NCBI GenBank assembly: GCA_963805065.1
Contig: CAWDSS010000010.1
Span: forward strand, 600,359-664,358
Origin: Candidatus Omnitrophota bacterium
Lineage (GTDB): Bacteria > Omnitrophota > Gorgyraeia > Gygaellales > Profunditerraquicolaceae
Direction of reading: 5' to 3'
DNA length: 64,000 bases
The notes beneath the pieces were generated by a model, which saw only the letters and a list, made by a program, of their open reading frames with translations, was not told the DNA's origin and ran no database searches. The number at the start of each line of letters is the position of its first letter. The first letter of the stretch is position 1. The position numbers and the translations under genes were made by a program. Shown one piece after another: positions 3,718-49,225 of this stretch.

Positions 3718-4453
3718 AAAAGGGGACGTTTCTATTTTTGTTAGATTTAACCCTCTTCCACGTCTATTAATAGTGGAAGGGGGTGTTTTTATGCCAAGGT
3801 CAAAAAGATTAATTCCTATAAATGCAGCTATGCATATTGTGTGTAGAGGCAATAACAAACAAGATATATTTAAAGGGGAAGGCGACAAATTGCGTTATTA
3901 TTCTTTACTTAAAGAGTTCGAGGAGGAAAACAGAGTAACTATTTTTCATTATTGCCTTATGAATAATCATGTACACCTACTTGTTTGGCTTGATGAAAAA
4001 AGTAAGGTATCAAGATTTATGAAACAGGTTAATTTGACTTATTTTAATTATTTCAACAAAATTTATAGTTATGTCGGACATTTATGGCAAGGCAGGTTTA
4101 AAAGCAACATAATAGACACTGATTCATATCTTCTGCAATGCGGTAAATATATTGAACTCAACCCCCTAAGAGCCGGCTTGGTTTATCAGGCGCAAGATTA
4201 TGCCTTTAGCAGCTATAATCATTATGCAAACGGAAAACCCGATTCGTTACTTAGTAATAATCCGATGTATATTGGCTTGGCAAATTCTGAAGAACAGCGG
4301 AGAAACCTGTATATTAATTTTGTGGTAGATACTCAGTTGGTAAATAAAGATATTCTAATCAAAAGATTTAAAAGAGGTAAGCCTAAAAATATATAATGGG
4401 GACGTTTCTATTTTCCGCTAAGCTGCAGAGATGAAAAATAGAAACGTCCCCAT
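3718..4453 (+). mobile_element. RAYT unit: REP-associated tyrosine transposase gene with flanking REP arms
   Basis: Single REP arm at 3718-3739, RAYT CDS at 3791-4396, REP doublet at 4395-4453. The outermost arms are in inverted orientation. Confidence 0.7.
3791..4396 (+). CDS. REP-associated tyrosine transposase (RAYT; IS200/IS605 TnpA-like Y1 HUH enzyme)
   Basis: HUH motif in LMNNHVHLLVW and catalytic-Tyr motif GKYIELNPLRAGLV. Start chosen at ATG 3791, preceded by ggaaggggg. The longer tracked ORF from 3659 merely reads through the upstream gene end and a REP arm. Confidence 0.8.
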   Translation: MPRSKRLIPINAAMHIVCRGNNKQDIFKGEGDKLRYYSLLKEFEEENRVTIFHYCLMNNHVHLLVWLDEKSKVSRFMKQVNLTYFNYFNKIYSYVGHLWQGRFKSNIIDTDSYLLQCGKYIELNPLRAGLVYQAQDYAFSSYNHYANGKPDSLLSNNPMYIGLANSEEQRRNLYINFVVDTQLVNKDILIKRFKRGKPKNI

Positions 4454-4489
4454 TTATTTTCAGGGTTTAGGCATTGTGGTTCATTTTAG

Positions 4490-4584: not shown

Positions 4585-5472
4585 TTACTGCTCAGACCAG
4601 GAAAGAATTTTATTTTCTTTCGGGCTTATCACTACTTGATAACGAACGCCGTCTTTGCCCTTAACCTGAGGGATAATATTAAGCCTTAAGTAGTCTGATT
4701 TTACGCTTAAAACACTCATCGCCGATAACAAATCCTGCTCCTGCCTTAAGCTTACGTCGGAGAAGTTCTTTAAATCCGCTAATATTGTTGCCTGGCTGGT
4801 AAATGCGCCGTCTTCTTTCCCCTGCTCAGCTTTATATTCCCGGCGAAAGCGCATAATTATATCTATAAGCTCATCATCCAGGCCCAACGCAGATAACACT
4901 TCGCTTGAGGCAGTATTAATATTTATTTTTCCCAGTCCATAGACGGTAATTGAATCTTTGATTTGATTGTATATGTCTTTGGTCATCCCCTCTACAAGCA
5001 AGAGCTCTTCTTTGCGTTTAAATGGCCGGCGAGTTGATTCTGTAATATTTTTTGCCAGGTCCTCATTTATACCTACCAGCCTTTTTAATACTTCACTAGA
5101 AACCAGGTTAATATTTATCAGCGCCCCTTCATCGACAAATTTCTCTTTTTCCCCGGCTGTTTTTCTTTCGCTAAGGTAATACTTGTAGCCTGGCTTATCA
5201 CAGAGCATTACTATATTTGCCTGCGTAAGCTCGTTATAAGAATCGTAATCCGGGGTAGCATCTTTAATTCTATCTTCAAATACGCGTAACATTGCTGCCT
5301 TTGCCATGGGTAGCGACATGGACTGGCGGATAAAAAAACTTGAGAATTTTATTTCCTGAAACACAAACCCTGCCAGAGCCAGACTTAAAATAGACAAAAT
5401 CGCAAGCGCCCAAAGGCTAACAATAAGAATGCTTCCCTGTTTATGCTGTGGGAATTGTAATAACCGTAACAT
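4585..5472 (-). CDS. gspK: GspK-like minor pseudopilin
   Basis: N-terminal QGSILIVSLWALAILSILSLA hydrophobic segment and the NINTASSEVLSALGL helix-hairpin-helix-like motif, both typical of T2SS protein K. It is the last gene of the pseudopilin run. Confidence 0.65.
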   Translation of the reverse strand: MLRLLQFPQHKQGSILIVSLWALAILSILSLALAGFVFQEIKFSSFFIRQSMSLPMAKAAMLRVFEDRIKDATPDYDSYNELTQANIVMLCDKPGYKYYLSERKTAGEKEKFVDEGALININLVSSEVLKRLVGINEDLAKNITESTRRPFKRKEELLLVEGMTKDIYNQIKDSITVYGLGKININTASSEVLSALGLDDELIDIIMRFRREYKAEQGKEDGAFTSQATILADLKNFSDVSLRQEQDLLSAMSVLSVKSDYLRLNIIPQVKGKDGVRYQVVISPKENKILSWSEQ

Positions 5473-6067
5473 AAGACTTTTCTTTTTGGGTTACATTAAC
5501 CTTGACTGCCAAGGGTAAAGTTGGTTGCTGTTGCCAATCTTTTTTCCAAACATATGCTTTTTGCTGAAGGTCATAAATTAGATATGCAAAACTAAAGTTA
5601 TCTAATCCTTCGGCAAAGGAAGAAAATTGCGGCTCTAATTGCAATTTACCCTTAGCTAAAATATCCGCCAATTTATCCTGGCTTCGATAAAGAGCCTTTT
5701 TATCAGCATCATACGAATAAATGACCCGGTAGATTTCAGAGTCAATTACCGAAGCAAGCTGCAGCTTAATGCCCGTGCCGCTAAAGGCAACATCATTAAA
5801 AAGAAATGCCTGCCTTAATTCCCGGTTTAGTTTTTCCATTTTTAATATAAACGCGCGCTGTTGTGCCTCGGAGTCTTTGGCGCGCCGCCATACGGTCATG
5901 CCGGAATTGAAAGTCGCATAAATAGCCACAGTTACGACAGCGAATATCGTAACTGTGATAAGCAGTTCGAGAAGCGTAAATGACCTCTGGGTTCTGGGTT
6001 CTGGGTTCTCGGTTCTCGGCAAGAACCTAGAACCTAAAACCCAAAACCTAGTTCTATTTTTGTTCAT
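5441..6067 (-). CDS. Minor pseudopilin (GspJ-like) with prepilin-type N-terminal motif
   Basis: FTLLELLITVTIFAVV class III signal motif. Start set at ATG 6067 (MNKNRTRF...). The leader is encoded by heptamer palindrome 5986-6051; an alternative TTG start sits in the palindrome loop. Confidence 0.55.
   Translation of the reverse strand: MNKNRTRFWVLGSRFLPRTENPEPRTQRSFTLLELLITVTIFAVVTVAIYATFNSGMTVWRRAKDSEAQQRAFILKMEKLNRELRQAFLFNDVAFSGTGIKLQLASVIDSEIYRVIYSYDADKKALYRSQDKLADILAKGKLQLEPQFSSFAEGLDNFSFAYLIYDLQQKAYVWKKDWQQQPTLPLAVKVNVTQKEKSYVTVITIPTA
5986..6051. repeat. Heptamer palindrome (GGGTTCT)n-loop-(AGAACCT)n
   Basis: tctgggttctgggttctgggttctcggttctcgg-caa-gaacctagaacctaaaacccaaaacctag; lies within the 5' coding end of pseudopilin 5441-6067. 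Confidence 0.9.
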
Positions 6068-6554
6068 TTTGTTTTTCTTCCTGTTTCCTTGGCAAATACG
6101 TCGAAACCCAAGCATCTTTAGTTCGTCCTGCCTCCGTCCAATCTACCCTAATACAAACTTCCACTAATTTTTCAGTTAAATAATCCGGGCTGGATACTTC
6201 TTTTACTTCGCTTAGCCAGTTAAAATTTCTTGGGCCAATTTTGCGGGTTCCCGAATCAGATTCTAACCCGGGAGTTAAACCTTTTCTTTCGTATGAAACC
6301 AACTCCAGCTCAGCCAGTTTGTCTCTAGCAAGCTGTGTCGCGCTAATATAATTTTGGCTTGCGTTTAGAGCGCCTGCAGAAATTATGTAAGACTGGCTGA
6401 CTATAACCAGCCCAAAGCCCAGTATGGCTACGCTTATCATTAGTTCAATAAGCGTAAATGACCTCTGGGTTTTGGGTTCTAGGTTTTGGGTTCTGGGCAA
6501 GAACCTAGAACCTAAAACCCAGAACCTAATATTATTCCCAGTTCGTAATATCAT
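6054..6554 (-). CDS. Minor pseudopilin (GspI/H-like) with prepilin-type N-terminal motif
   Basis: FTLIELMISVAILGFGLV motif. The leader MILRTGNNIRFWVLGSRFLPRTQNLEPKTQRS is encoded by heptamer palindrome 6464-6528. Confidence 0.55.
   Translation of the reverse strand: MILRTGNNIRFWVLGSRFLPRTQNLEPKTQRSFTLIELMISVAILGFGLVIVSQSYIISAGALNASQNYISATQLARDKLAELELVSYERKGLTPGLESDSGTRKIGPRNFNWLSEVKEVSSPDYLTEKLVEVCIRVDWTEAGRTKDAWVSTYLPRKQEEKQNEQK
6464..6528. repeat. Heptamer palindrome
   Basis: tctgggttttgggttctaggttttgggttctggg-caa-gaacctagaacctaaaacccagaaccta; lies within the 5' coding end of pseudopilin 6054-6554. Confidence 0.9.
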
Positions 6555-6930
6555 CAGCGGTGCCTGGCTGGCCGTCTTTTCCTACGCTGGAAAGATCGTA
6601 TCCATTTTGATTGTGCTCTCCGGGGAATTTATACAGATAGGCCTTGCCCCAAGGATCAAGCGGTTTTTTCTTTAGATATGGCCCCCGCCAGTTGTCTGCT
6701 GCAGCAGGCTTTGTAGTCAAATAGTCCAGGCTATCGGGAAAAGTCCCCATATCCATTTCATAAAGATCCAAAGCCAGTGCAATGCTTGAGCTGATGTCCG
6801 ACTTTGCAGCCTGAATCCTGGCTTGCTCGGAACGGCCGGCTAGCCTCGGCATAACCATAGCTGACAAAATACCGATAATGATTACTACTAACATCAGTTC
6901 GATTAATGTAAAGCCTCTTTTTGTTTTCAT
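6532..6930 (-). CDS. gspG: Major pseudopilin GspG-like
   Basis: MKTKRGFTLIELMLVVIIIGILSAMVMP plus C-terminal WRGPYL...DPWGKAYLY...GKDGQPGTADDI, a classic GspG pattern. Start trimmed to ATG 6930, preceded by ggagg. Confidence 0.85.
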   Translation of the reverse strand: MKTKRGFTLIELMLVVIIIGILSAMVMPRLAGRSEQARIQAAKSDISSSIALALDLYEMDMGTFPDSLDYLTTKPAAADNWRGPYLKKKPLDPWGKAYLYKFPGEHNQNGYDLSSVGKDGQPGTADDITNWE

Positions 6931-7003
6931 GGAATCCTCCCTGTTAATGTCAAATACCAAAGCACAAAATCCAAAATAAATTAAAATTTCAAAATCTAAA
7001 AAT

Positions 7004-7074
7004 AAAAGGGGACGTTTCTATTTTTCTTCTAATTTTAGTTTTAGGGAACGTTAAAAATAGAAACGTCCCCTTTT
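7004..7074. repeat. REP doublet
   Basis: Same arms; the spacer contains gggaacgtt. Confidence 0.9.
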
Positions 7075-7090
7075 ATTCAGAATGAACCTT

Positions 7091-7122
7091 AGTTTTGACT
7101 TTTACGTTTTGCGTTTTACGAC
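7091..7122. repeat. Second heptamer family (GTTTTRC/CTTTTAC)
   Basis: gttttga cttttac gttttgc gttttac; overlaps the pilO-like stop codon. Confidence 0.8.
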
Positions 7123-7655
7123 AGCGACACTGCCAGAATATTAACTTCTATTTTTAGCACTCCGGAAGTCTCATCTTTGCTGGATAAATTAAGCTTGTCA
7201 ATTTTAAAAAGTATATCGGAATTCTCTAAATTATAAATAAAATCAAAAAACTTCTTTACATCCGCTTCAGCGCGAAGTTGCACGTGAAAAGTCTTAGGCA
7301 TAGCCTGGGGATTAACAGAGGCTTGCGGATTCAGGTCCAAGATGGATAAACCCGACTGCCTAGCCAAGGCTTCGATTTTACTTAAGATTACGCCCATCTT
7401 TGCCTCGTCAGTTCCTTTGAGGCTTAAATAACGCTCTATCTGTTTTTGTGCTTTCAAAATATCTTCTTTTTGCTGCACGAGTTCCAGGTATTTACGGATG
7501 CCCAACTGCTGGCGCTCTATGTCAAGCTTAACAGAACTCATTTTTTCAAGCAGCGGATTAAAAATAATCAGTTTGAACATAAACGCCAGCGCCAAAGCTC
7601 CGACGGCAATGGCCAATATTTTTTCACGCTTTCCTAATTTTTTAATATTTAGCAT
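7116..7655 (-). CDS. PilO/GspM-like bitopic assembly protein
   Basis: 179 aa with an N-terminal TM helix (ILAIAVGALALAFMFKLIIF), a coiled coil and a small C-terminal domain. It sits between the PilM/N-like gene and gspG. Assignment rests on architecture and context only. Confidence 0.4.
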   Translation of the reverse strand: MLNIKKLGKREKILAIAVGALALAFMFKLIIFNPLLEKMSSVKLDIERQQLGIRKYLELVQQKEDILKAQKQIERYLSLKGTDEAKMGVILSKIEALARQSGLSILDLNPQASVNPQAMPKTFHVQLRAEADVKKFFDFIYNLENSDILFKIDKLNLSSKDETSGVLKIEVNILAVSLS

Positions 7656-7695
7656 AAAGGTCGACTATTTTACTTTTGGCTTTTAACTTTTTACT

Positions 7696-9096
7696 TTATT
7701 TTATGCCTATCTCAAAATCCACTATTTCTTTTTCTTTTACTTTGCGCCGGCGCATGTACTTGGCCTGGGAGTCCTTAAAAATGCTGGAATTATTCAGCGC
7801 ATTTACAAAGCTGGAGATATCGGGCATCTGTTGTGCATAACCGCGGATACTGAAGTTTTTCTGCCATTCCCAGGTAAAATTTGTCAGTGTAATATTATCG
7901 GGGCAAAGCCGCGTTAATTCATAAATGTAGGTAGCTACCGAATCCTTTGCTCCGTAATACTGTTTCACGATTGTTATCTTTTGCGCAACGTCATATAAGG
8001 CGCCTGTGTCTTTCTTTAATTGGGTGATCCTCTTTTCCAGCCCCTCTCGGTATGACTGCAGTTGATTTATCCTCACCAAAGCAAGCAGGCCTAATATAAT
8101 AAAAACATAAGTTATGCACGCTCCCATTGTAAGTATTTGCTGCATTTTGAGTTTTATCTCTTTCTTAATCTGCGCCTCCGGCAGCGTAAAATTAATATCC
8201 TCTTTTCTCCTCTGGTAACTAAACCCTAATACGGAGGCAAAGGACACGCCTTCTGCGTTCCTGACGGGGAATTTATCCAGTTCGCTGCATCTTGTAAACT
8301 CAAACTTCAGATTAAAATCTTTTTTCAGCCAATTTTCTATCGTAGATTCTAATTCCCGGGGGGCTCCGGTTATAAAAAGGCGGCTAGGCTTTGTATTGGG
8401 GATTTCGTTATTCAACACTACCAACGCCTGTTTTAATTCGGCACAGCATTTCTCTCTTTCTGTCTCCATTCTGAGCTGCTCGCAGCCTTGCGATATTATA
8501 ACAGTGGATCTGATATTATGATTATTCACCAATACGAGATCGCTAAAATTATAATCGATGTCAAACACAAGGAACGCCCCGTGCAAAAGCGATTTATCTT
8601 TTATGGCCTCATTAATATAATGGACTGTGCCTTGCGAACTCATCAGCATTGATTCAGGTAATATGTTTAGGGGGGTGAATGCGTTAAAAATGTGCCGCAG
8701 CATTTCGCGGTGTGCCACTGCCAAAAGAATATGGCTGTTACTTAAACCGTCAAACCCCAGGTTCTGGTGGCTCCAGATAATTTCCTCTTTTGGATAGGGG
8801 ACTTGCCTTATGACATGTAACCCCAGCATTGATTCGATTTCCGCAGGATCCCTCGACGGCAAATCCAGCTCTCTAACGGTGATTTTATTGCGGCTGACCA
8901 CAACCAAAACCTCTAAGCCCTTTTTTTGCCCTATCTGCTCAAAAATGTTCTTTAGGGAATTGGCAAGGTTATAATTATCTAACCCCGCGGGCTCAAGAAT
9001 TATCTTATCTACTGCGTTATGCGCAATGCCTACAGACGAAGAACATACGGCCTTAAGCCAACGCTCGGAAAACTCTATTACTACTTTTTTCTTCAT
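7696..9096 (-). CDS. PilM-PilN fusion / GspL-like assembly protein
   Basis: 466 aa: an N-terminal ~320-aa cytoplasmic actin-like region (PilM-like start MKKKVVIEFSERWLKAV), one TM helix (ILTMGACITYVFIILGLLALV) and a ~120-aa periplasmic tail. Located directly downstream of gspF. Confidence 0.5.
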   Translation of the reverse strand: MKKKVVIEFSERWLKAVCSSSVGIAHNAVDKIILEPAGLDNYNLANSLKNIFEQIGQKKGLEVLVVVSRNKITVRELDLPSRDPAEIESMLGLHVIRQVPYPKEEIIWSHQNLGFDGLSNSHILLAVAHREMLRHIFNAFTPLNILPESMLMSSQGTVHYINEAIKDKSLLHGAFLVFDIDYNFSDLVLVNNHNIRSTVIISQGCEQLRMETEREKCCAELKQALVVLNNEIPNTKPSRLFITGAPRELESTIENWLKKDFNLKFEFTRCSELDKFPVRNAEGVSFASVLGFSYQRRKEDINFTLPEAQIKKEIKLKMQQILTMGACITYVFIILGLLALVRINQLQSYREGLEKRITQLKKDTGALYDVAQKITIVKQYYGAKDSVATYIYELTRLCPDNITLTNFTWEWQKNFSIRGYAQQMPDISSFVNALNNSSIFKDSQAKYMRRRKVKEKEIVDFEIGIK

Positions 9097-9099
9097 TAT

Positions 9100-10314
9100 T
9101 TAACCGCCGACTAAAGTATCTATGGTGAAGATTGGCAGGAGCACAGCCATCACAATTCCACCGATAACTAACCCTAAGATAAGGATAATCGCCGGCTCAA
9201 GAAGGGAGCTGATAACCTTTAAATCGCCCTCGATTTCCTGTTCATAAGAATTTGCAATATCCTCCATAACGCTATCAAGCCTGCCGCCCTCTTCCCCCAC
9301 CCGGATCATCTGGACAACAAAATCCGGAAAAATTTTGAATTTGGAAAGAGCCTGAGAAAAAGAACTGCCTTCTTTGATGTCGCTGGAAACTTTGCCTAAT
9401 TGTTTTATCTGCTGCGGGTTTTCTATAATGGGCGCTGTAATTGATAGCGCGGATAATAGCGTCACTCCACTTTTTAATAAAAGCGCTGTACTCGTCGAGA
9501 AATTAGCTATTGCCTGTTTATACACAAGCGACTTTACCATGGGCAGGCGGTATTTTAACCACGAAAGAACGCTGCTGCCGTCTTTGCCTTTCTTTTGCAG
9601 TAAACCCAATATAAGCATGAAGGCTACGACTACCAATAACCAGTATTTTTTAAGGAATCCGGCGATAGCCAAAAGAATAACCGTGGGTAGCGGGAGTGCT
9701 GCCTGGAAATCTTCAAACATTCCGGCTAAGCGCGGCAAAACAAACGTAAGCATAACAAAAATTGTCCCAATGCCTACCACGATCATGAATATAGGATACG
9801 CCAATGCCTGACGCACTTTCGTACGCAACTCTTCAGTATGTTGTAGGCGCGTTAAAATCTGCTCCAGCGCATCTTTCAGCTGGCCCGAACCCTCTCCTGT
9901 GCGGATGATATTTATATAGAGAAGAGAAAAATATTGCGGGTATCGGGAGAGGCATTGTGAAAAAGTCATCCCCTCTTTAATGTTTTTGATTATGTCTTCT
10001 AATAGCAATTTTTCCGTATGGTCACTGCCGGACTGCTCAAGCAGCCTCAATGCAGAAAGCAATTCCACGCGGGATTTACTCAGGTTATACAATTTCTGGG
10101 TAAACAAAACTAATTTTTTATGCCCCCACTTACCCAGCTTTATGTTGGATGGCTTAATTTTTGTATCGGCCCTTGCTGCCCCTTCTTCCTCCACCGATAT
10201 AGCAATCATACCCTGATGCTCGAGATTTTCTATTACATGCTCGACAGTATCAGCCTCAAGCTTACCTTCTACTATCTCGTTTAAGCTTTTTTTTGCCTTG
10301 TATCTAAATAACAT
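9100..10314 (-). CDS. gspF: Type II secretion / type IV pilus platform protein (GspF/PilC family)
   Basis: 404 aa with two repeats of the T2SSF cytoplasmic domain plus three TM segments; motifs LSRYPQYFSLLYINIIRTGEGSGQL and FPDFVVQMIRVGEEGGRL. Confidence 0.9.
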   Translation of the reverse strand: MLFRYKAKKSLNEIVEGKLEADTVEHVIENLEHQGMIAISVEEEGAARADTKIKPSNIKLGKWGHKKLVLFTQKLYNLSKSRVELLSALRLLEQSGSDHTEKLLLEDIIKNIKEGMTFSQCLSRYPQYFSLLYINIIRTGEGSGQLKDALEQILTRLQHTEELRTKVRQALAYPIFMIVVGIGTIFVMLTFVLPRLAGMFEDFQAALPLPTVILLAIAGFLKKYWLLVVVAFMLILGLLQKKGKDGSSVLSWLKYRLPMVKSLVYKQAIANFSTSTALLLKSGVTLLSALSITAPIIENPQQIKQLGKVSSDIKEGSSFSQALSKFKIFPDFVVQMIRVGEEGGRLDSVMEDIANSYEQEIEGDLKVISSLLEPAIILILGLVIGGIVMAVLLPIFTIDTLVGG

Positions 10315-10321: not shown

Positions 10322-11935
10322 CTATATTTCTACTACGCGCATAATTTCTTCTTGGGTAGTAAGGCCTTCCTGCACTAACTGCATGCCTGCGTCTTTTAAG
10401 GAACGCATGCCCAATTGTTGCGCTTTTGTCCTAAGTTCCGATGCGGTCTTACGGGCAACAATCATCTGCCGGATCTCATCGTCAATTGCCAGTATTTCAA
10501 AGATTGCCCTTCTGCCTTTGTAACCCGTATCGCTGCAATTGTCGCAACCCTTGCCTTTGCATATGGGGCATAGGAGCCGTATCAGCCTTTGTGCGATTAA
10601 TATTTCCAGGGAAGACGCCAGCAAGAATGGCTCAATGCCCATATCCAATAGCCTGGCAATTCCCGCCGGAGCGTCATTGGTATGCAAGGTAGAAAATACC
10701 AAATGCCCGGTAAGGGCAGAGCGTATTGCCAGGTCTGCGGTTTCAGAATCGCGGATTTCTCCAATCATCATAATATCCGGGTCATGGCGTAGGACGCTGC
10801 GCAGGGTATTGGCAAATGTCAAGCCCACTTTGGGATTTACCTGAATCTGAGTTATTCCTTCTAAGGCATACTCCACAGGGTCCTCTATGCTGATAATCTT
10901 TACTTCCGGCTTATTCAGCCTGCTCAAAGAGGCATACAGGGTTGTGGTCTTTCCGCTTCCTGTTGGCCCTGTGAGCAGGATGATTCCATGGGGCTTTTGC
11001 AGAGCCTTTTTTATTTTTTGCAGGTCATTAGGGTCGAAACCTATGGCGTCCAAATCCAACAGAATCTGGGTAGGCAATATTCTAATCACCACATTTTCCC
11101 CGAAATATCCGGGGATTATAGAAATCCTTAAATCAACTTCCTGGCCGTCCTGAAGGCGTACTTTAGTCCGGCCGTCCTGGGGTATACGGTGCTCTACCAC
11201 ATCAAGGATGGACATAATTTTTATACGCGAGACAATTGCCGGCTCTATATAATATATATCCTCCGGCACCCTGAATTCGCGCAATATTCCGTCGATGCGG
11301 TAACGTAAATGCACCTTGTTCAGGTAGGGCTCGATATGGATATCGGTTGCGCGCAGGCGTATTGCCTCGGATAGAATCTGATTTACCAAATTTATAACTG
11401 ATGCCTCCTCCGCGCTTTTTTCAATATCTTCTACTTTTTCTTTGGCAATCAGGGTTTCTTTGTCATCTTTCTTGCCGGTGATAATTCTATCTACTGTCCC
11501 TGCCACCATGCCGTAGTGTTTATGTATTGCCTCCTCGATTTCAGCGCGCGTGCTTAAAACCCTTTGCACATTAAACCCTAAATCCAGCTTGATATTTTCC
11601 GCCAGCCACACATCCATGGGATTACTGACGGCAATGGTCAGCGTCTTATCTTTTAGCTCAAGGGGCATAAACCCGTAATGCTGCACGAATTTTACCGGCA
11701 CAGCCTTCACTGCTTCTTGAGAAATGGGCCTTTCTTTAAGGCGCGGGAAAAATGGCATGCGGAACTGCTCTGCCAAAACCTCCAGCAACTGCCCTTCCTT
11801 CAGGTGCCCTGCTTTTATGAGGGCCTTGCCTAAAATCTCTTCATTCTCCGGAGATTTCTTCAATGCCTCGCTTAACTGCTCTTTGGTAATAAATCCCTTG
11901 TTTATTAATATTTCTCCCAATAATTTTACAGCCAT
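10322..11935 (-). CDS. gspE: Type II secretion / type IV pilus assembly ATPase (GspE/PilB family)
   Basis: Walker A GPTGSGKTTTLYA, Asp and His boxes (IMMIGEIRD, TGHLVFSTLHTN), tetracysteine motif CPICKGKGCDNC, and an N-terminal GspE_N-like domain. Confidence 0.92.
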   Translation of the reverse strand: MAVKLLGEILINKGFITKEQLSEALKKSPENEEILGKALIKAGHLKEGQLLEVLAEQFRMPFFPRLKERPISQEAVKAVPVKFVQHYGFMPLELKDKTLTIAVSNPMDVWLAENIKLDLGFNVQRVLSTRAEIEEAIHKHYGMVAGTVDRIITGKKDDKETLIAKEKVEDIEKSAEEASVINLVNQILSEAIRLRATDIHIEPYLNKVHLRYRIDGILREFRVPEDIYYIEPAIVSRIKIMSILDVVEHRIPQDGRTKVRLQDGQEVDLRISIIPGYFGENVVIRILPTQILLDLDAIGFDPNDLQKIKKALQKPHGIILLTGPTGSGKTTTLYASLSRLNKPEVKIISIEDPVEYALEGITQIQVNPKVGLTFANTLRSVLRHDPDIMMIGEIRDSETADLAIRSALTGHLVFSTLHTNDAPAGIARLLDMGIEPFLLASSLEILIAQRLIRLLCPICKGKGCDNCSDTGYKGRRAIFEILAIDDEIRQMIVARKTASELRTKAQQLGMRSLKDAGMQLVQEGLTTQEEIMRVVEI

Positions 11936-11980
11936 TGTATTCGCCCTCCGTCTTGATTATTTCTGTAATGTTTAAAAAAT

Positions 11981-12042
11981 AAAAGGGGACGTTTCTATTT
12001 TCCTTCTGCTTAAGAAACGTTAAAAATAGAAACGTCCCCTTT
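11981..12042. repeat. REP doublet
   Basis: Same arms; lies between the atpD stop and the gspE start. Confidence 0.9.
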
Positions 12043-12062
12043 ATTTTGCAGAATGAACCTTA

Positions 12063-12095
12063 GTTTTGCCTTTTTACTTTTGCGTTTTGAGTTTT
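12063..12095. repeat. Second heptamer family
   Basis: gttttgcctttttacttttgcgttttgag. Together with the preceding cagaatgaaccttag it duplicates the 7075-7122 segment. Confidence 0.8.
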
Positions 12096-12101
12096 TCAAG
12101 T

Positions 12102-13493
<1,392 letters not shown>

Positions 13494-14336
13494 TTAGTGT
13501 CTACCTAATAGCCTTGACGCAGAAATCTCGCGAATCGTCTTATCAGAAAGGCCATGCAGGTACTTAAAATATTCCAGCTCCAAATGCTGGTTAATGCGTT
13601 TTAATTCCTGGAGGCTTGCCTCCAAATGCATGATGCGCGCGGCGAACTCCGCTAATTTACTGGACCAGAAAATCTGATAAAGCCTAAACCCCAACCACAG
13701 CTTGGCCCAGCCTTCAATGACCAGGCTTCGGCTTGGCTCAATAATAATATCTTCCTTTTTAACATCTGGATTTAGCGACGGGGGCGGCAAAGGCAACAGG
13801 GTTTCCGATTCAATCTGCTGAAGGGCAATATTCACGAACCTGGGATAAATTATCTGGATTTTACCGATTTCGCCTTTCCTGTAACGCTTAAAGCAATAGT
13901 CTCTTAACGGCTCCACGTGTTTGAATTCTAATTTTTCACTCGGCGAGGAAAAGGGAGTAAAATCCATCCCTACTTCTTCCAGGTACTCTGCTCCCTGGCG
14001 GCCTAAAACAATTATTTCATTTTCCCCCGATCTTATTTCCGAGAGCCTGTTAACTAATAGCACGTTTAACTCTCCTAAGAAGCCTTCATCGGAACTTACC
14101 AGGATAATAGCGGACGACGACGATTCAGGGCGCGGGCTGAAAAAGATACTGTTTGTAGCCAGCCCGGAAATCAAATTAATCCCTTCTTCCAGGGAGGGCA
14201 AAAAATCCCTTCTGGGCTCCTGGCGGGTGCGGAACTGGTTAAACTGCAAAGTTGCCGCCATCTTCATTACTTCTATGAGTTCATCCAGGTTTTTATTGAA
14301 TTTGAGATTCTCTTTTAATTTCGCAGCCGGTATCAT
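13494..14336 (-). CDS. atpG: F1 ATP synthase gamma subunit
   Basis: 280 aa between alpha and beta. N-terminal helix LIEVMKMAATLQFNQ and C-terminal helix ...TIREISASRL match the gamma pattern. Confidence 0.75.
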   Translation of the reverse strand: MIPAAKLKENLKFNKNLDELIEVMKMAATLQFNQFRTRQEPRRDFLPSLEEGINLISGLATNSIFFSPRPESSSSAIILVSSDEGFLGELNVLLVNRLSEIRSGENEIIVLGRQGAEYLEEVGMDFTPFSSPSEKLEFKHVEPLRDYCFKRYRKGEIGKIQIIYPRFVNIALQQIESETLLPLPPPSLNPDVKKEDIIIEPSRSLVIEGWAKLWLGFRLYQIFWSSKLAEFAARIMHLEASLQELKRINQHLELEYFKYLHGLSDKTIREISASRLLGRH

Positions 14337-14338
14337 TC

Positions 14339-15811
14339 CTACCCTACTTCAATTGTCCTAAAGAACTCCTGGATCGACTTATCCAGCCTTTCCTTTATCT
14401 GTTCGGTTAAATCGCCGTATTTGTCCAATTCATCGACGATACTGGCATTGTGTTTTAACAAGAATGTGAAAAACTCCTGCTTGAATTTCTTCACCTGCTC
14501 AATACTTATTGCCTCTAAGATCTTTTTATCAAAGGTATAGAACAGGACTATTTCTTCTGCCAGAGAAAGCGGGGCATTGTTTTCCTGCGTAAGAAGCTCA
14601 TACAGCGCCCTTCCTCGCTGCAATTGCGCTGTTGCCTCGGCAGATAACTTTGTACGCAGGCGTGTCAATCTCTGCAAAGACCGGTAATGCACGTATTCAT
14701 AACGTAAGCCCCTGCTTAAACTACGCATTGCAGGAGACTGCACCTTGCTTCCAATACGGGAAACTGAAAGCTCAAGGTCTATTGCCGGCTTAAACCCTTC
14801 CTGGAATAAACTCGTATTAAGATAAATCTGGCCGTCTGTCATGGAAACAAGATTAGACGGGATGTATCCGGTGATGTCACCTTGCAAGGTTTCGCACATC
14901 GGCAAAAATGTCATTGTCCCGCCGCCAAATTCCTGCCTTAAGAATCCGGCGCGCTCCATAAGCTGTGAATGCAGGAAAAATATATCTCCGGGGTATGCCT
15001 CTCTTCCCGGAGCCCGCTCCAGGAGTAAAGACATTTGGCGGTAAATCCAGGCGTGCTTGGTAAGGTCGTCAAATATTACTAATACGTCTTTGCCCTTATG
15101 CATAAAATATTCGCCCAGCGTAGCAGCAGTATAAGGACAGACGTACTGCTCGGCCGTAGATGAGCCTGCCGGAGCACATATTCCTATTGTATATTCCATG
15201 GCCTGCTTCTGGGCAACGGTCTGCATAATTTTTTTAAACGCAGCGTAATTGCCGCCAATCCAGCAGTAAATACAAATTACGCCTTTGCCTTTCTGATTAA
15301 TAATCGTATCTAAGGCTATTGAGGTCTTACCTATCTGGCGGTCTCCCACAATTAACTCGCGTTGGCCCTTACCGATAGGAATAAGCAGGTCAATAATTTT
15401 AATTCCCGTCATCAGCGCCTTATTTATAGGCTCGCGTTCCATGACACCTGCTGCCTCGCGAAAAACCGGGTTAAAATCCGAAGAGGTTATTTCTCCCTTG
15501 TCATCAAAAGGCCTGGCTAAACTATCGACAATCCTTCCGATAAAGTTTTCTCCAACAGGAATATATAATGGCCTGCCTTGGCTAGAAACAGTATCACCGA
15601 CTTTTACGCTGTACTCATCGCCAAAAACAATCCCGTAGACGCAGGAAGGATTAAACTCAATAACCATGCCTTTAATACGGCTGCCAGAAGCATTTTCGAA
15701 TTCTATAACCTGCCCGTAGATACAGTTAGGCAAGCCGCTTATCTTAATGATGCCCTGCCTGACTTCTTCTACTTTGCCTATTTCTTTTATTTCTATGGTA
15801 GGAATATGCAT
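14339..15811 (-). CDS. atpA: F1 ATP synthase alpha subunit
   Basis: P-loop GDRQIGKTSIALDTIINQ, DDLTKHA, REAYPGDIFFLHSQLMERA, SITDGQI-like SMTDGQIYL. Confidence 0.92.
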   Translation of the reverse strand: MHIPTIEIKEIGKVEEVRQGIIKISGLPNCIYGQVIEFENASGSRIKGMVIEFNPSCVYGIVFGDEYSVKVGDTVSSQGRPLYIPVGENFIGRIVDSLARPFDDKGEITSSDFNPVFREAAGVMEREPINKALMTGIKIIDLLIPIGKGQRELIVGDRQIGKTSIALDTIINQKGKGVICIYCWIGGNYAAFKKIMQTVAQKQAMEYTIGICAPAGSSTAEQYVCPYTAATLGEYFMHKGKDVLVIFDDLTKHAWIYRQMSLLLERAPGREAYPGDIFFLHSQLMERAGFLRQEFGGGTMTFLPMCETLQGDITGYIPSNLVSMTDGQIYLNTSLFQEGFKPAIDLELSVSRIGSKVQSPAMRSLSRGLRYEYVHYRSLQRLTRLRTKLSAEATAQLQRGRALYELLTQENNAPLSLAEEIVLFYTFDKKILEAISIEQVKKFKQEFFTFLLKHNASIVDELDKYGDLTEQIKERLDKSIQEFFRTIEVG

Positions 15812-15835
15812 TGTTTAGCTGTCAGTCGTCAGAAG

Positions 15836-15898
15836 AAAAGGGGACGTTTCTATTTTTAACGTTTCCCAACTAGAAGAAAAATAGAAACGTCCCCTTTT
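15836..15898. repeat. REP doublet
   Basis: Same arms. The spacer aacgtttcccaactagaag is the reverse complement of the spacer at 16826, so the element is in the opposite orientation. It lies between the atpF(b) and atpA genes. Confidence 0.9.
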
Positions 15899-15950
15899 CT
15901 TTGGGTCCCCTTTTCTTTGGGTTTTGTCATTTGCCATTACACTTTACACA

Positions 15951-16673
15951 TTACACGGATTTACTGAGTTCGGGTATGACTCTGGATAATTTATTCCTGA
16001 GGGTTCCGTCGATAACCAACCCTCCTATTTCAACGGTCAGGCCGCTGATTAAATCTTTATCAACGGATTCTTCCAAGGCAATATTCCTCTCTAGTTTCTC
16101 AGCCAAAACTTTTTTCAAGGTTTCCCGTTGTTTATCTTGCAGGGCGTAGCTGGCAATAACCTTTACTTTATCGGAGGTGACTGTAAACTTTTCTTTGGGC
16201 AGTTTGCCGATTTCCTGGATAATCTCGGTAATAAATTGGTGCTGTAGTTCCTCTTTGTCTGTTTCGTTAAATGTCTCCTCGATCATCCTGATTGCCAGGT
16301 CCAGGCTTTGCTTTTGCATTTCCCGGTTGAGTTTTTCTTTCAGCTCCTTTACCTCTTCTTTTGCCTGGGCAATGATTTTCTCTGATTGCTGCCTAGCCTC
16401 CTCTTCCATAATCAGGCGGGTCTTAATTGCCTCCTGTTTTGCTTCCTCTATCAAAGCATCGGCTGCTTCTTTACCCTTGGCAATCTCTGCTTCTCTTTCT
16501 TCCTGAGCGCGCTTCAGCTCTTCGGTAAGCTGCGCTTCCTTGACTAAATTCTCCTCGTGGAGTGAGTTTAATCTGGTTAAGGCAACATTGAGGTTACGCG
16601 AAAAAATATAGCGTAAGACAAACAGAAGCACTATAAATGTGATTCCCTGAATTATGAGGAGTTGGATTAGCAT
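15951..16673 (-). CDS. atpF: ATP synthase b subunit fused to a delta(OSCP)-like C-terminal domain
   Basis: N-terminal TM helix plus a long charged helix (b-like). The C-terminal ~90 aa end in VDKDLISGLTVEIGGLVIDGTLRNKLSRV, which resembles the conserved C-terminus of delta/OSCP. No separate delta gene is present in the cluster. Confidence 0.7.
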   Translation of the reverse strand: MLIQLLIIQGITFIVLLFVLRYIFSRNLNVALTRLNSLHEENLVKEAQLTEELKRAQEEREAEIAKGKEAADALIEEAKQEAIKTRLIMEEEARQQSEKIIAQAKEEVKELKEKLNREMQKQSLDLAIRMIEETFNETDKEELQHQFITEIIQEIGKLPKEKFTVTSDKVKVIASYALQDKQRETLKKVLAEKLERNIALEESVDKDLISGLTVEIGGLVIDGTLRNKLSRVIPELSKSV

Positions 16674-16675
16674 TG

Positions 16676-16794
16676 TCTAGGTTCTAAGCTATGGCTTAGC
16701 CTTCTAAGGTTCTAGGCTATGGAATAGACTTCTGGGTTCTAGGTTATGGGTTCTGGGCTATGGGCAAAAACCTAGAACCTAAAACCTAGAACCT
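16676..16794. repeat. Heptamer/27-mer structured array abutting the atpF(b) start codon
   Basis: Contains the ~80-nt unit shared with 17144-17228 and 17472-17556, plus one extra ggttctaagctatggcttagccttct module. Confidence 0.9.
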
Positions 16795-16825
16795 ACTTCG
16801 TAAACAAATTGTATACTATCAGTAG

Positions 16826-16888
16826 AAAAGGGGACGTTTCTATTTTTCTTCTGGTTGGGAAACGTTAAAAATAGAAACGTCCCCTTTT
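16826..16888. repeat. REP doublet
   Basis: Same arms; spacer cttctggttgggaaacgtt; lies between the atpE(c) and atpF(b) genes. Confidence 0.9.
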
Positions 16889-16928
16889 CTTTGGGTGTTG
16901 TCATTTGTCATTACACTTTACACAATTA

Positions 16929-17141
16929 CTATTTCGTAAATAGATTGTACACAATTAACAACGCTAATACTGCGATTGCCTCGGCGAAAATAAAAGCCAA
17001 AATCATGGCTATGAATATCTTGGCAGATGCCGAAGGGTTGCGTGCCACGGACTTGACCGCCGAGAAACCGACCAAGGCAATTACAGCTGCCGGTCCTGCG
17101 GTGCTTAGGAACATGGTTATGATTAGAATTAAGTTCTGCAT
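16929..17141 (-). CDS. atpE: ATP synthase c subunit (proteolipid)
   Basis: 70-aa two-helix hairpin with loop ARNPSA (cf. ARQPE) and a carboxylate in FIFAEAIAVLALL. Confidence 0.8.
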   Translation of the reverse strand: MQNLILIITMFLSTAGPAAVIALVGFSAVKSVARNPSASAKIFIAMILAFIFAEAIAVLALLIVYNLFTK

Positions 17142-17143
17142 TG

Positions 17144-17228
17144 TCTAGGTTCTAGGCTATGGAATAGACTTCTGGGTTCTAGGTTATGGGTTCTGGGCTA
17201 TGTGCAAAAACCTAGAACCTAGAACCTA
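17144..17228. repeat. ~85-nt heptamer-based structured element filling the atpC-atpE spacer
   Basis: gtctaggttctaggctatggaatagacttctgggttctaggttatgggttctgggctatgtgcaaaaacctagaacctagaaccta. Confidence 0.9.
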
Positions 17229-17229
17229 A

Positions 17230-17469
17230 TTATGTTTCCACAAATATCTTTAATGCATTGCTCTTCATAAACGCAATGCCGTCTTTAATTAAAACCTGGT
17301 TCTGGGTTCTGGGTTCTGAGGAACACCTAATATTACCTTTTTTTAGCCTCATCAGGAATGGCTGATGAAAATCCAATACGCAAACTTCTCCGTCTTCAGT
17401 GGGTAAAGTCACCTGCCTTGCATTTCCTTCCCAGAGTACGCCTTTGGGTTCGAGTATACTTACCTGCAT
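17230..17469 (-). CDS. atpC: ATP synthase epsilon subunit, N-terminal beta-sandwich domain only
   Basis: 79 aa. LEPKGVLWEGNARQVTLPTEDGEVCVLDFHQPFLMRLKKGNIR aligns with the epsilon N-domain pattern (GE.g.L..H.P.l..L..G). It lacks the C-terminal helical hairpin. A heptamer repeat encodes SSEPRTQNQ. Confidence 0.65.
   Translation of the reverse strand: MQVSILEPKGVLWEGNARQVTLPTEDGEVCVLDFHQPFLMRLKKGNIRCSSEPRTQNQVLIKDGIAFMKSNALKIFVET
17296..17320. repeat. Direct heptamer run inside atpC
   Basis: ctggttctgggttctgggttctgag, read in-frame as SEPRTQNQ. Confidence 0.8.
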
Positions 17470-17471: not shown

Positions 17472-17556
17472 TCTAGGTTCTAGGCTATGGAATAGACTTC
17501 TGGGTTCTAGGTTATGGGTTCTGGGTTATGTGCAAGAACCTAAAACCTAGAACCTA
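17472..17556. repeat. ~85-nt heptamer-based structured element abutting the atpC start codon
   Basis: Near-identical to 17144-17228, with a few substitutions. Confidence 0.9.
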
Positions 17557-17571
17557 ATTCACTATAATTAT

Positions 17572-19244: not shown

Positions 19245-19272
19245 ATTTTTTGTAAGTTGTTTGATCTATCTG

Positions 19273-19409
19273 TTAATGTCAAATGACAAAGCACAAATGA
19301 AGAAAAGGGGACGTTTCGAAGAAAAGGGGACGTTTCTATTTTTAACACCTCCGGTTTAGCAGAAAAATAGAAACGTCCCCTTTTCTTTGGATGTTGTCAT
19401 TTGTCATTA
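19273..19409. mobile_element. Short composite MITE-like element
   Basis: ttaatgtcaaatgacaaagcacaaa - REP doublet - ctttggatgttgtcatttgtcatta. The ends are inverted repeats of each other. Confidence 0.65.
19303..19384. repeat. REP doublet preceded by a partial duplicated half-arm
   Basis: gaagaaaaggggacgtttc is duplicated, followed by a full doublet at 19322-19384. Confidence 0.9.
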
Positions 19410-20111
19410 CTCCTTGTTTTCTTCCGAAAGCTTTCTCTCCTGCTCCGACTTCGCCTGCTGCTGCCAGATAATATAAAAGGTAAGTCCCAATATTCCTAAG
19501 AAAACGATGATAAAAATAATTATTTTCCAGGTAAGCTTGGCTAACCCCCGAGGCTGGACTTCTGCAAGCAAAGTCTTGGCTGAAAGCAAATCGTTCTTTG
19601 CTGATTCCAGCTGGCTTACGCAATAACGGTAATCCGATATATGCTGCGAAGGGTTATTCGCCGATGCCTTCTGCTTTTCTTCCACTTCATTAAGTTTCTT
19701 TTCTACGTCGCCGTAAAGAACATTGGCTTTATCGGCATAGCCTGTTTTGGCAAATCCGCTAAAGACATCTTTGGCTTCTTTACGAAGCGCCAAAATCTGT
19801 GCCTCATCAACGACCCAGACATCTTTAATCTCAATTTCCTTTTCCAGCACCTCTTTAGGCTTAAGCTCATACTCACCGGAGACATAATAAGTGCCCAGTT
19901 GCGCATCATAAGCAACCTCTAAATCTTCCTTATAAATAATGTCCTCGGGCTTTACTTCCAGGGGTAGATATACTTTTATCGGCACGGTTTGCGTCGATTC
20001 TTCAGAAGGATTTACCGCTACTACTCGAAGAGTAATGCTGGCTTGTGCAAGGCTTGCAAAAAATAACAGGCAAAAAAAAGTGATTAAGGAAAAGAAAATC
20101 GCTTTTTTCAA
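19407..20111 (-). CDS. Hypothetical bitopic membrane protein (signal peptide plus C-terminal TM)
   Basis: 234 aa with N-terminal signal sequence FFSLITFFCLLFFASLAQA and C-terminal TM WKIIIFIIVFLGILGLTFYIIW. It lies 64 nt downstream of the giant gene. No family recognised. Confidence 0.5.
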   Translation of the reverse strand: MKKAIFFSLITFFCLLFFASLAQASITLRVVAVNPSEESTQTVPIKVYLPLEVKPEDIIYKEDLEVAYDAQLGTYYVSGEYELKPKEVLEKEIEIKDVWVVDEAQILALRKEAKDVFSGFAKTGYADKANVLYGDVEKKLNEVEEKQKASANNPSQHISDYRYCVSQLESAKNDLLSAKTLLAEVQPRGLAKLTWKIIIFIIVFLGILGLTFYIIWQQQAKSEQERKLSEENKE

Positions 20112-40154: not shown

Positions 40155-40233
40155 TTGGGTTCTGGGTTCTGGGTTCTGGGCTGTAAATATTGACCGGGTT
40201 TTAGCTAGAACCGAAAACCTAGAACCTAGAACC
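40155..40233. repeat. Heptamer palindrome upstream of the DUF2341/giant-gene operon
   Basis: ttgggttctgggttctgggttctggg-23 nt-ctagaaccgaaaacctagaacctagaacc. Confidence 0.9.
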
Positions 40234-41563: not shown

Positions 41564-41617
41564 TTGGGTTCTAGGTGTTCGACTCTCTATTATTACTTCT
41601 GGGTTCTGGGTTCTTGG
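41564..41617. repeat. Heptamer units (GGTTCT orientation) between the RR start and the four-helix-bundle gene end
   Basis: ttgggttctaggtgttc ... cttctgggttctgggttcttgg. Confidence 0.85.
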
Positions 41618-41805
41618 TAATCATTTACATGTTGCCTGGTTTTTCCTTCTGCAATGTTTGAAGAAATAGAAACAGCGCATCTTCTCATTTGATTAATCAA
41701 GCCGTACATTTCCTCTTTAGGAAAATCTTTGGTAAGTATATAAACTTTTTTAACGAACTCTATGGATTTTTTCCAAACTTCCAAGTCTTTATAGCTTTTT
41801 ATCAC
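41593..41805 (-). CDS. Four-helix-bundle protein (23S rRNA intervening-sequence protein family), truncated
   Basis: SYKDLEVWKKSIEFVKKVYILTKDFPKEEMYGLINQMRRCAVSISSNIAEG matches the N-terminal half of the family. The ORF ends in heptamer-encoded YQEPRTQK, so about half the usual length is missing. GTG start. Confidence 0.55.
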   Translation of the reverse strand: MIKSYKDLEVWKKSIEFVKKVYILTKDFPKEEMYGLINQMRRCAVSISSNIAEGKTRQHVNDYQEPRTQK

Positions 41806-49099: not shown

Positions 49100-49102
49100 A
49101 AT

Positions 49103-49165: not shown

Positions 49166-49225
49166 ATTTTTGGGCCTCATTTTTAGCTTAGGGTAGTTAT
49201 AGTAAGTGCTATAATATTATAGTAA

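Follow-up and report, generated by a model that had tools for sequence, protein, structure and literature searches.

How does a DNA palindrome come to stand between the start codon and the mature part of two neighbouring genes of a secretion machine, with the reading frame open through the whole of it? This question is raised by a 64,000-nt stretch of a Candidatus Omnitrophota genome (assembly GCA_963805065.1, contig CAWDSS010000010.1, positions 600,359 to 664,358), which is called the window below. According to the list of open reading frames (ORFs) and profile matches, the minus strand of the window has a type II secretion / type IV filament-like operon, and its GspI-like and GspJ-like minor pseudopilin genes each carry a 63-nt (AGGTTCT)4-loop-(AGAACCN)4 palindrome between the ATG and the codon of the first mature residue, Phe+1. 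We consider it likely that these palindromes are repeats of the REP/MITE type (repetitive extragenic palindromic sequences and miniature inverted-repeat transposable elements, respectively), which are built from heptamer arrays and are tolerated, and translated, in a disposable leader peptide, analogous to the Rickettsia palindromic elements (RPEs). The sequences support this answer in the family membership of the palindromes, the insertion site, the ancestral start codon, the bias toward open frames and the recurrence of unrelated palindromes at the same sites in relatives.

The palindromes between the ATG and the class III signal motif had been noticed in a sequence-only reading of the window, and the ORF list and Tandem Repeats Finder, which reported period-7 arrays at 5986-6016, 6022-6051, 6464-6497 and 6500-6528, place them where that reading did (Table 1). 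The translated leaders, MNKNRTRFWVLGSRFLPRTENPEPRTQRS/FTLLELL and MILRTGNNIRFWVLGSRFLPRTQNLEPKTQRS/FTLIELM (a slash marks the cleavage site), are exactly as it wrote them. They are 32 and 29 residues long, end in Ser, and are hydrophilic and basic, with 6-7 Lys/Arg against 1-2 Asp/Glu and a net charge of +5. The gspI-like palindrome starts 5 nt past the gspG stop codon (6532-6534) and the gspJ-like one 3 nt past the gspI-like stop codon (6054-6056), while the gspJ-like/gspK-like junction is repeat-free. In both genes, the element is bracketed by in-frame AGG codons 63 nt apart, corresponding to nine heptamers or 21 codons, and in silico deletion of the 63 nt between these codons leaves the canonical leaders MILRTGNNIRS/F and MNKNRTRS/F. 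This length (63 = 9 x 7 = 21 x 3) bears out the earlier remark that the gain or loss of one 7-nt unit shifts the frame. The RNA hairpins supposed at that time were also found to be stable (-39.8 and -39.6 kcal/mol; z = -7.4 and -5.1, respectively). Since an independent Logan assembly (L001) is 100% identical across 2487 nt, the leader palindromes are not an assembly artefact. On the plus strand, antisense ORFs of 70 and 83 aa (5955-6167 and 6424-6675) cross the palindromes, and their peptides (LWVLGS..KNLEPKTQNL) are near-identical because the element is palindromic; comparable spurious "hypothetical proteins" over heptamer arrays are frequent in public protein sets.

Homologues of both minor pseudopilins were obtained from Candidatus Omnitrophota. 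Among the profiles, PF11612 (T2SSJ) matched at 31.5 against a cutoff of 28, TIGR01707 (gspI) and TIGR01711 (gspJ) were the best matches, both below cutoff, and the N_methyl motif was detected by PF07963 at 30.9-32.3 bits (cutoff 21.2) and also by TIGR02532. The hydrophobic N-terminal helix with Glu5 is present (FTLIE and FTLLE), and the gene order E-F-PilN-M-G-I-J-K is kept in two related loci, L140 and L008. Both ORFs are full length with their invariant residues retained, and the ratio of nonsynonymous to synonymous substitution rates (dN/dS) against orthologues is about 0.1, dS being saturated. From the intact ORFs, this ratio, the N_methyl and T2SSJ matches and the G-I-J-K synteny, the two genes look functional. 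That the insertions inactivated them, so that the open frames would be those of recent pseudogenes, is hardly credible. In its favour, the length of the leaders and the Ser at -1 are non-canonical, but ORF integrity and dN/dS speak against decay, the same architecture is kept in a lineage at 53-57% identity (L002, L010), and stop codons are avoided at exactly the vulnerable seventh positions of the heptamers.

Where translation starts can be judged from orthologous loci that have no repeat (L012, L007, L008, L139 and the first of two gspI-like copies in L138). Only 7-19 nt separate the gspG stop codon from the Phe+1 codon there, and the nearest in-frame start is an ATG in the C-terminal Asp-Asp codons of gspG (G ATG AT.). 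This is the sole start yielding a leader of normal length; further in-frame ATG, TTG and GTG codons lie upstream, within gspG. The resulting leaders are MMISRIGNKRS/F, MILKIGSNKKS/F, MTLQTGNKICVIKA/F and MMISRTGNNHA/F. In the window, the ATG of the gspI-like gene is embedded in the same Asp-Asp codons, and that of the gspJ-like gene likewise overlaps the 3' end of the gspI-like gene. Because the repeat-free orthologues start at the codon corresponding to the ATG at 6552-6554, the overlapping ATG is ancestral and the repeat lies within leader-coding DNA. The repeat thus appears to be an in-frame insertion into a leader at its ancestral start, and the orthologues gave no sign of initiation downstream of the palindrome site, in agreement with the sequence-only reading. 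The Ser at -1, which had been contrasted with the canonical Gly, is indeed present in both leaders, but it is independent of the repeat: orthologues lacking any repeat also have S or A at -1, which is a property of the clade and no consequence of the insertion. The leader of the major pseudopilin (Table 1) was as had been given. A start at Met+7 in one predicted protein (P0013) was rejected as a gene-caller miscall, since the DNA of its locus, L007, has a normal overlapping ATG and encodes the leader MILKIGSNKKS/F. Translational bypass between the in-frame AGG codons, as in T4 gene 60, was considered too, and is unnecessary, the frame being open.

The TTG in the palindrome loop had been described as the only other in-frame start. 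This is true between the ATG and Phe+1 of both genes, whereas the gspJ-like ORF has an extra in-frame ATG upstream, at 6115. Initiation at the loop TTG would give 14-residue leaders, MPRT(Q/E)N(L/P)EP(K/R)TQRS, and would leave the upstream ATG and the 5' arm untranslated. Such leaders are within the normal length range, both copies have the TTG in frame, and so does the gspJ leader palindrome of L011. We nevertheless regard this as improbable. The sequence TTGC(A/C)C is the loop consensus of the whole repeat family, intergenic copies included, so that it is no evidence for a start codon presented in a loop. No Shine-Dalgarno sequence precedes it, its flanks are sequestered in the stem, and in orthologues without the repeat the overlapping ATG serves as the start. 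Stop codons are avoided in the 5' arm, too, at its frame-vulnerable junction, which would be needless if the arm were untranslated. Furthermore, the gspI leader of L002 and the gspJ leader of L010 have no start codon within or past the element, and therefore the whole palindrome must be read there. As had been claimed, part of the repeat is translated under either start: in the window, translation of the 3' arm is unavoidable, and that of the entire element is very probable.

The two palindromes are not alone in the window. The pattern GGTTCTNGGTTCT, allowing up to two mismatches, has 76 matches against 4.2 expected, a number reached by none of 100 shuffled sequences. The heptamer family occupies 13 sites, at least 11 of them besides the two pilin leaders; about six of the 13 are intergenic and seven overlap coding DNA. 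Its arrays have 3-5 period-7 units per arm (Tandem Repeats Finder), all full copies share one orientation relative to the minus strand, and the folds range from -23 to -40 kcal/mol (z from -4.2 to -7.4). Over 68 nt, the copy that precedes the atpF/delta-like gene can be aligned colinearly with the pilin copies (54/68, about 79% identity with 14 mismatches), terminal CAGARGTC included. Four full intergenic copies (in the ATP synthase operon and upstream of the histidine kinase gene) start at, or within about 25 nt of, the upstream stop codon, two of them adjoining or overlapping it; they have a 3' extension, CAGAAGTCTATTCCATAGCCTAGAACCTAGA, and end 1-6 nt before the next ATG, and no Shine-Dalgarno sequence was found at the genes that follow them. 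At the gspG, gspI, atpC and secretin junctions, no more than about 5 nt lie between the upstream stop codon and the start of the copy, and one copy overlaps the stop codon. Where the family is read in frame, the encoded peptides are of the types G-S-R-F-[WS]-V-L and E-P-[RK]-T-Q-N-[PL], and the array in the PyrK-like protein causes no net length change compared with solved PyrK structures. On this evidence, the leader palindromes are members of a dispersed repeat family rather than a device specific to pilins, as the sequence-only reading had imagined them; the same leader sites, moreover, hold unrelated palindromes in relatives.

The heptamer palindromes gave only sub-threshold matches to generic miRNA-precursor-like hairpins in Rfam. 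A scan of genome contigs with GGTTYTNGGTTYTNGGTTYT found at least 120 stretches across many phyla, none from the source genome among the matches listed, and this pattern is too loose. A synthetic 58-aa probe of the heptamer-encoded peptide found just short "hypothetical" ORFs over similar arrays in diverse taxa, none from the source contig.

The relatives show how such leader sites are filled and kept open. Thirteen filled gspI or gspJ leader sites (window, L002, L010, L005, L138, L139, L011 and L134) were compared; each is open from a canonical start to Phe+1 and has retained G, A or S at -1. Five unrelated palindrome families are represented among them. Heptamer palindromes related to those of the window are found in the gspI leaders of L002, L003 and L004 and in both leaders of L010. 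The GGGGACG family, a REPIN (an inverted doublet of REP sequences), fills the gspI leader of L005 and both leaders of L138, where the ATG lies inside the 5' arm and the leader reads MGTFLFLT...KNRNVP.... A GGGGTCAGAATTATTTTTT palindrome is present in the gspJ leaders of L005, L139 and L011 (MGSELFF...KNNSDP...), a GTCATTGCGA...TCGCAATGAC palindrome at the gspI leader of L011, and an 8-mer-based palindrome at that of L134, the one new useful locus among five found by a metagenome scan for GspI relatives. Element states are scattered across the GspI tree, and P0004 (GGGGACG leader) and P0083 (8-mer leader) share one 90%-identity cluster, which argues for fast turnover with at least five independent gains. 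As separate observations, L138 (a contig of GCA_017973895.1, 94-1199) has a tandem gspI-like duplication. The leader of the first copy is free of repeats, and this copy is split into two ORFs; identical GGGGACG palindromes precede the second copy and the gspJ-like gene and supply their ATGs. In L010, a degenerate remnant of a pilin N-terminus (LA/FTPLETIG, 722-779) lies downstream of the heptamer palindrome and is followed by the canonical leader MVSLTG/FTLIELM, which suggests a partial target duplication during or after insertion.

Among the intergenic copies of the window, by contrast, just 1 of 18 frames is open for heptamer cores (94% closed) and 12 of 66 for the GGGGACG family (82% closed), whereas in the three full coding copies exactly the used frame is open. 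The seventh base of the left arm is A at 15 of 17 intergenic junctions. In coding copies, an A would produce an in-frame TAG at three junctions, and these have G, G and C instead; of the seven junctions at which an A does no harm, six have it. The avoidance of in-frame stops by seventh-base variants, pointed out in the sequence-only reading, is thus supported. The contingency switching that it had also proposed, in which slippage by one 7-nt unit would turn the minor pseudopilins ON or OFF, is very unlikely. Seven is not a multiple of three, the present length is exactly nine units or 21 codons, and heptameric simple sequence repeats (SSRs) are slippage-prone in principle (PMC4692102). However, the units are imperfect and heterogeneous, runs of identical units do not exceed three, the ON frame is found at each of the 13 filled sites, L001, the only second assembly, is identical, and the 90% clusters of both proteins are singletons. 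Minor pseudopilins are also core machine parts and not typical phase-variable surface antigens.

The main alternative is that the hairpin is the selected feature: a stable stem-loop directly past the upstream stop codon would act in translational coupling or attenuation, as a block to 3' exonucleases or as an RNase site, and would set a high-major/low-minor pseudopilin ratio. Whatever palindromic repeat is at hand would be recruited, with its translation as a side effect. REP sequences stabilise upstream mRNA in E. coli operons, e.g. malE-malF. Depending on the lineage, hairpins of five unrelated families stand at the two leader junctions, the gspG-gspI spacer of L140 contains a hairpin that is not a repeat, and the pilin copies are the strongest of their family (about -39 against -23 to -30 kcal/mol). 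In L005, L138 and L139, the ATG is in the 5' arm, a few nucleotides past the upstream stop codon, and this geometry suits termination-reinitiation. We give this explanation a minor, though real, share of the probability. L012, L008, L007 and, at gspI, L139 are without any hairpin at the junction, and the hairpin is thus dispensable in close relatives. The same repeat families occupy many unrelated intergenic spaces. Folding of the antisense strand is at least as favourable as that of the sense strand (-43.3 against -33.5 kcal/mol for pilI), so that there is no G-U signature of selection on the mRNA, and this asymmetry would equally fit a single-stranded DNA intermediate. A terminator scan found no terminator-like U tract at the heptamer palindromes, no Rfam family matched, and the gspI-gspJ junction separates two minor subunits, for which a stoichiometry switch is less obviously needed.

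Somewhat less likely still, REP-like palindromes might have been domesticated as interchangeable 5' cassettes, each bringing a start codon, a disposable basic leader and a hairpin past the upstream stop codon, and forming a repeat-encoded stoichiometry device. Under this doubtful proposal, translation of each minor subunit would be a fixed fraction of that of the preceding gene and strictly dependent on it, the cassettes would be swapped often between lineages, and the ATG would come from the 5' arm, as it does in L005, L138 and L139.

Returning to repeats tolerated in a disposable leader, we picture the events as follows. The heptamer family (unit AGGTTCT / AGAACCN) fills short spaces past stop codons in this genome and occasionally lands in coding DNA. 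In the gspG-I-J-K block, the ATGs of the minor pseudopilin genes overlap the end of the preceding gene, and therefore the sole slack DNA past the upstream stop codon is the leader-coding segment, in which a 63-nt copy (nine heptamers, 21 codons) lies in both genes. Translation would start from the ancestral overlapping ATG and read through the hairpin, adding about 21 basic, mostly hydrophilic residues to the cytoplasmic leader. Prepilin peptidase would then remove this long leader at Ser(-1)/Phe(+1), leaving the mature protein unchanged. Selection, or survivorship, would hold the frame open via the seventh-base variants, and any effect of the hairpin on expression would be secondary and not the reason for the presence of the element.

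Several points weigh against this reading. The textbook bacterial class III signal peptide has a leader of 6-26 aa ending in Gly (PMC4471445), a description that the present leaders, with 29 and 32 aa and a final Ser, do not fit. Ribosomes could be impeded by a hairpin of about -39 kcal/mol within the reading frame. The repeated independent gain of hairpins at the same two junctions, together with the non-repeat hairpin of L140, could mean that the hairpin itself is selected, and the pilin copies are the most regular and most stable ones in the window. The sequence at the right end of the element, CAGAGGTCA, is similar to the 3' extension that the family itself carries, CAGAAGTCT; codons -2 and -1 may be derived from the element, and the event was perhaps no simple insertion. 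The family has been sampled in 64 kb of a 1.19 Mb contig.

Table 1. Genes and repeat copies in the window. Positions are counted from the first nucleotide of the window.
Feature	Position	Strand	Remarks
gspE	10322-11935	-	ORF list and profile search
gspF	9100-10314	-	ORF list and profile search
PilN-like gene	7696-9096	-	ORF list and profile search
M-like gene	7116-7655	-	ORF list and profile search
GspG-like major pseudopilin gene	6532-6930	-	Leader MKTKRG/FTLIELM
GspI-like minor pseudopilin, 166 aa	6054-6554	-	ATG 6552-6554 in last gspG codons; Phe+1 6456-6458; loop TTG 6498-6500
GspJ-like minor pseudopilin, 208 aa	5441-6067	-	ATG 6065-6067; Phe+1 5978-5980; loop TTG 6020-6022
GspK-like gene	4585-5472	-	Last of G-I-J-K block; 32-nt overlap with gspJ-like gene
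Palindrome in gspI-like leader	6464-6529	-	5' arm 6529-6500, loop about 6499-6495, 3' arm 6494-6464
Palindrome in gspJ-like leader	5986-6051	-	5' arm 6051-6022, loop about 6021-6017, 3' arm 6016-5986
Intergenic heptamer copy upstream of atpF/delta-like gene	16676-16795	-	All three sense frames closed
Intergenic heptamer copy between atpC and atpE	17148-17228	-	Starts 1 nt past atpC stop, ends 6 nt before atpE ATG
Intergenic heptamer copy upstream of atpC-like gene	17476-17557	-	Ends 6 nt before its ATG
Intergenic heptamer copy, 34-nt higher-order repeat	43207-43317	-	5' arm overlaps secretin-TPR stop; ends 1 nt before histidine kinase ATG
Intergenic heptamer copy upstream of DUF2341 gene	40156-40233	-	
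Single-arm array in ATP synthase epsilon-like protein loop	17298-17318	-	In frame (SEPRTQNQ)
Full palindrome within DUF2341 protein	39413-39482	-	In frame (EGSRFSVLGSGDYANTKNLEPRTQ); sole open frame is the used frame
Single-arm array, C-terminus of same DUF2341 protein	38691-38717	-	IEPKTQNPEPNS, then stop codon
Partial copy, C-terminal end of truncated 23S-rRNA-IVP-like ORF	41567-41621	-	DYQEPRTQK, then stop codon; ends 4 nt before response-regulator ATG
Five-unit array within PyrK-like protein	56469-56504	-	In frame (GFSVLGSRLSVLV)
Y1/RAYT-like transposase gene, beside operon	3791-4396	+	Best NCBIfam match REP_Tyr_transpos, 62 bits (cutoff 80)
GGGGACG-family flanks of RAYT-like gene	3722-3739; 4395-4454		GGGGACGTTTCTATTTTT at 3722-3739; full palindrome at 4395-4454
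Other GGGGACG-family copies	2693-2755, 7001-7077, 11977-12047, 15833-15901, 16824-16890, 19319-19387		
Other GGGGACG-family copies	45705-45791, 49098-49170, 53045-53117, 60329-60389		
Spacer heptamer-array sites	7085-7125, 7655-7700, 12055-12105; 15925-15960, 16893-16915, 19270-19305, 19390-19412		

Beside the heptamer family, a second palindrome family, GGGGACGTTTCTATTTTT-19 nt-AAAAATAGAAACGTCCCC (the GGGGACG family), has at least 11 copies in the window, with stems of 20-27 bp followed by T runs; one of them (7001-7077) lies upstream of the major pseudopilin gene. Copies flank the gene for a Y1/RAYT-like (REP-associated tyrosine) transposase, and family and gene fit a REPIN-RAYT pair as judged from their arrangement. 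The heptamer family does not flank this RAYT-like gene, and no transposase linked to it was found in the 64-kb window. In L005, the syntenic RAYT gene is flanked by a different repeat, GGGGTCAGAATTATTTTTT; different repeats flanking syntenic RAYTs look like REPIN-RAYT co-evolution in Omnitrophota.

Other repeat arrays were observed in the window. A (GGTTNTT)-type heptamer array (47323-47360) in the secretin gene at 45812-47377 encodes the hydrophobic core of a predicted signal peptide (MKIKILLLVIGCWFSVFGYA...), a further, predicted, cleavable targeting peptide built from repeat DNA. A (GGAAAAA)7.7 array (58704-58757; gene sense strand, TTTTTCC on the plus strand in Tandem Repeats Finder) encodes the Lys-rich C-terminal tail of a carbamoyl-phosphate-synthase-like protein, and a perfect array of four 8-mers (53834-53865) encodes PyrF residues 3-13 (VKNSRTQELKN). 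Arrays of (NNAAAAC/G)n ending in CTAAGGTT and of (TGTAATG / AATGACA)n fill operon spacers. Relatives have other heptamer units (GTCAGCT/AGCTGAT in L010, GTGTAAT in L140), and the clade in general seems to be characterised by heptamer arrays of diverse sequence. The heptamer 3' extension ends 1-6 nt before the ATG of five genes that lack a Shine-Dalgarno sequence, i.e. those for the atpF/delta-like protein, atpE, atpC, the response regulator and the histidine kinase (start codons on the minus strand at 16673, 17141, 17469, 41562 and 43205, respectively), while canonical GAGGAG sites precede other genes of the window; translational coupling, or processing to near-leaderless mRNA, are possibilities for the five.

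As for the neighbourhood, the ATP synthase operon (12102-17469) directly adjoins the secretion operon, an arrangement shared by L140. The operon encodes a fused b/delta-like subunit and an epsilon subunit that is short (79 aa), and may correspond to the "symbiotic" F-type ATPase noted for Omnitrophota (PMC10066038). A giant ORF of 6162 aa (20176-38664), with about 17 tandem 174-nt repeats (58 aa, YNGY.YIMGG-type) at 34646-37557, lies between the secretion operon and ATP synthase genes on one side and two secretin genes (43315-45867, 45812-47377) on the other. Omnitrophota giant genes have been reported beside type II secretion genes (bioRxiv 10.1101/2023.11.21.568195), and the giant ORF of the window fits this neighbourhood. 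The Omnitrophota literature searched mentions type II secretion genes beside giant genes and does not describe such repeats. Among the ORFs of the window that were scanned, none was found to encode an A24 prepilin peptidase.

By definition, repeats of the REP type lie outside genes, and palindromic repeats read in frame have been known chiefly from Rickettsia. The present case suggests that a selfish hairpin repeat can survive within a coding region if the stretch of protein that it encodes can be dispensed with. What is unusual is the place of persistence, a disposable leader peptide, which is used recurrently and by several families, with the start codon sometimes donated by the repeat; no description of repeat-encoded prepilin leaders was found in the literature searched. 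If this is true, cleavable targeting peptides would offer selfish DNA a refuge in compact genomes, and prepilin peptidases would have to tolerate leaders of about 30 aa with arbitrary sequence and Ser or Ala at -1. Annotators would have to treat odd long pilin leaders, as well as "hypothetical" GSRFSVLGS / EPRTQNPEP peptides in metagenomes, as repeat read-through. The filled and empty alleles also offer a natural series in which to ask whether hairpins between cistrons adjust the proportions of subunits made from type II secretion and type IV filament operons.

Compared with known systems, the heptamer family resembles in structure the REP and REPIN sequences, which are short imperfect palindromes with many copies per genome and form inverted doublets folding into hairpins (PMC3116915, PMC3337134). 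It likewise consists of multi-copy imperfect palindromes in inverted doublets with predicted hairpins, and the GGGGACGTTTCTATTTTT and GGGGTCAGAATTATTTTTT families, both RAYT-flanking, occupy pseudopilin leader sites in relatives. Unlike a REPIN-RAYT system, it has no linked RAYT in the window; and REPs are extragenic by definition, whereas several heptamer copies are translated and, in L005, L138 and L139, a REPIN supplies the ATG. As with the intercistronic REP hairpins of E. coli, the leader palindromes stand directly past the stop codon of a highly expressed gene and before less expressed ones, but the E. coli elements are untranslated while these are predicted to be translated. Heptameric SSRs of cyanobacteria and Xanthomonas (STRR and similar) are tandem 7-nt units that are strongly intergenic and nearer to the 3' end of the upstream ORF, some being paired inverted arrays (PMC4692102). 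The present family also has tandem 7-nt units close behind the upstream ORF, but its unit is AGGTTCT and not GGGGA(C/T)T or GGGAATC (PMC4692102), it has no G-quadruplex potential, it is regularly palindromic (four units-loop-four units), and it has in-frame coding copies, which are not a feature of the heptameric SSR reports.

With respect to the protein, type IVb prepilins have a basic hydrophilic leader of about 15-30 aa before a hydrophobic helix with Glu5, which is cut by prepilin peptidase (PMC4471445), and the window pseudopilins have a similarly long basic hydrophilic leader before the Glu5 helix. They are, however, minor pseudopilins of the type IVa-like type II secretion system (T2SS), whose relatives have leaders of 4-14 aa; the extra length is repeat DNA and not an evolved leader, and the residue at -1 is Ser, not Gly.

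The heptamer family is thus a member of neither the REPIN-RAYT nor the heptameric SSR family, and it does not belong to the RPEs. RPEs are dispersed palindromes found in intergenic regions and in frame in unrelated genes, whose ORFs stay intact while gaining a conserved peptide encoded by the element (PMC10969869). They are about 100-150 bp long, have no tandem heptamers and are alpha-proteobacterial, whereas the Omnitrophota element is 63-66 nt long and heptamer-built, and no sequence relationship was found or expected. RPE insertions have been described in mature domains, while the heptamer copies of the two pilin genes are in cleavable class III leaders. Like the RPEs, the heptamer element is found in frame in unrelated proteins (the DUF2341 protein, AtpC, the PyrK-like protein and both pseudopilins) with the ORFs preserved, and by this analogy the Rickettsia palindromic element appears to be its closest functional counterpart.

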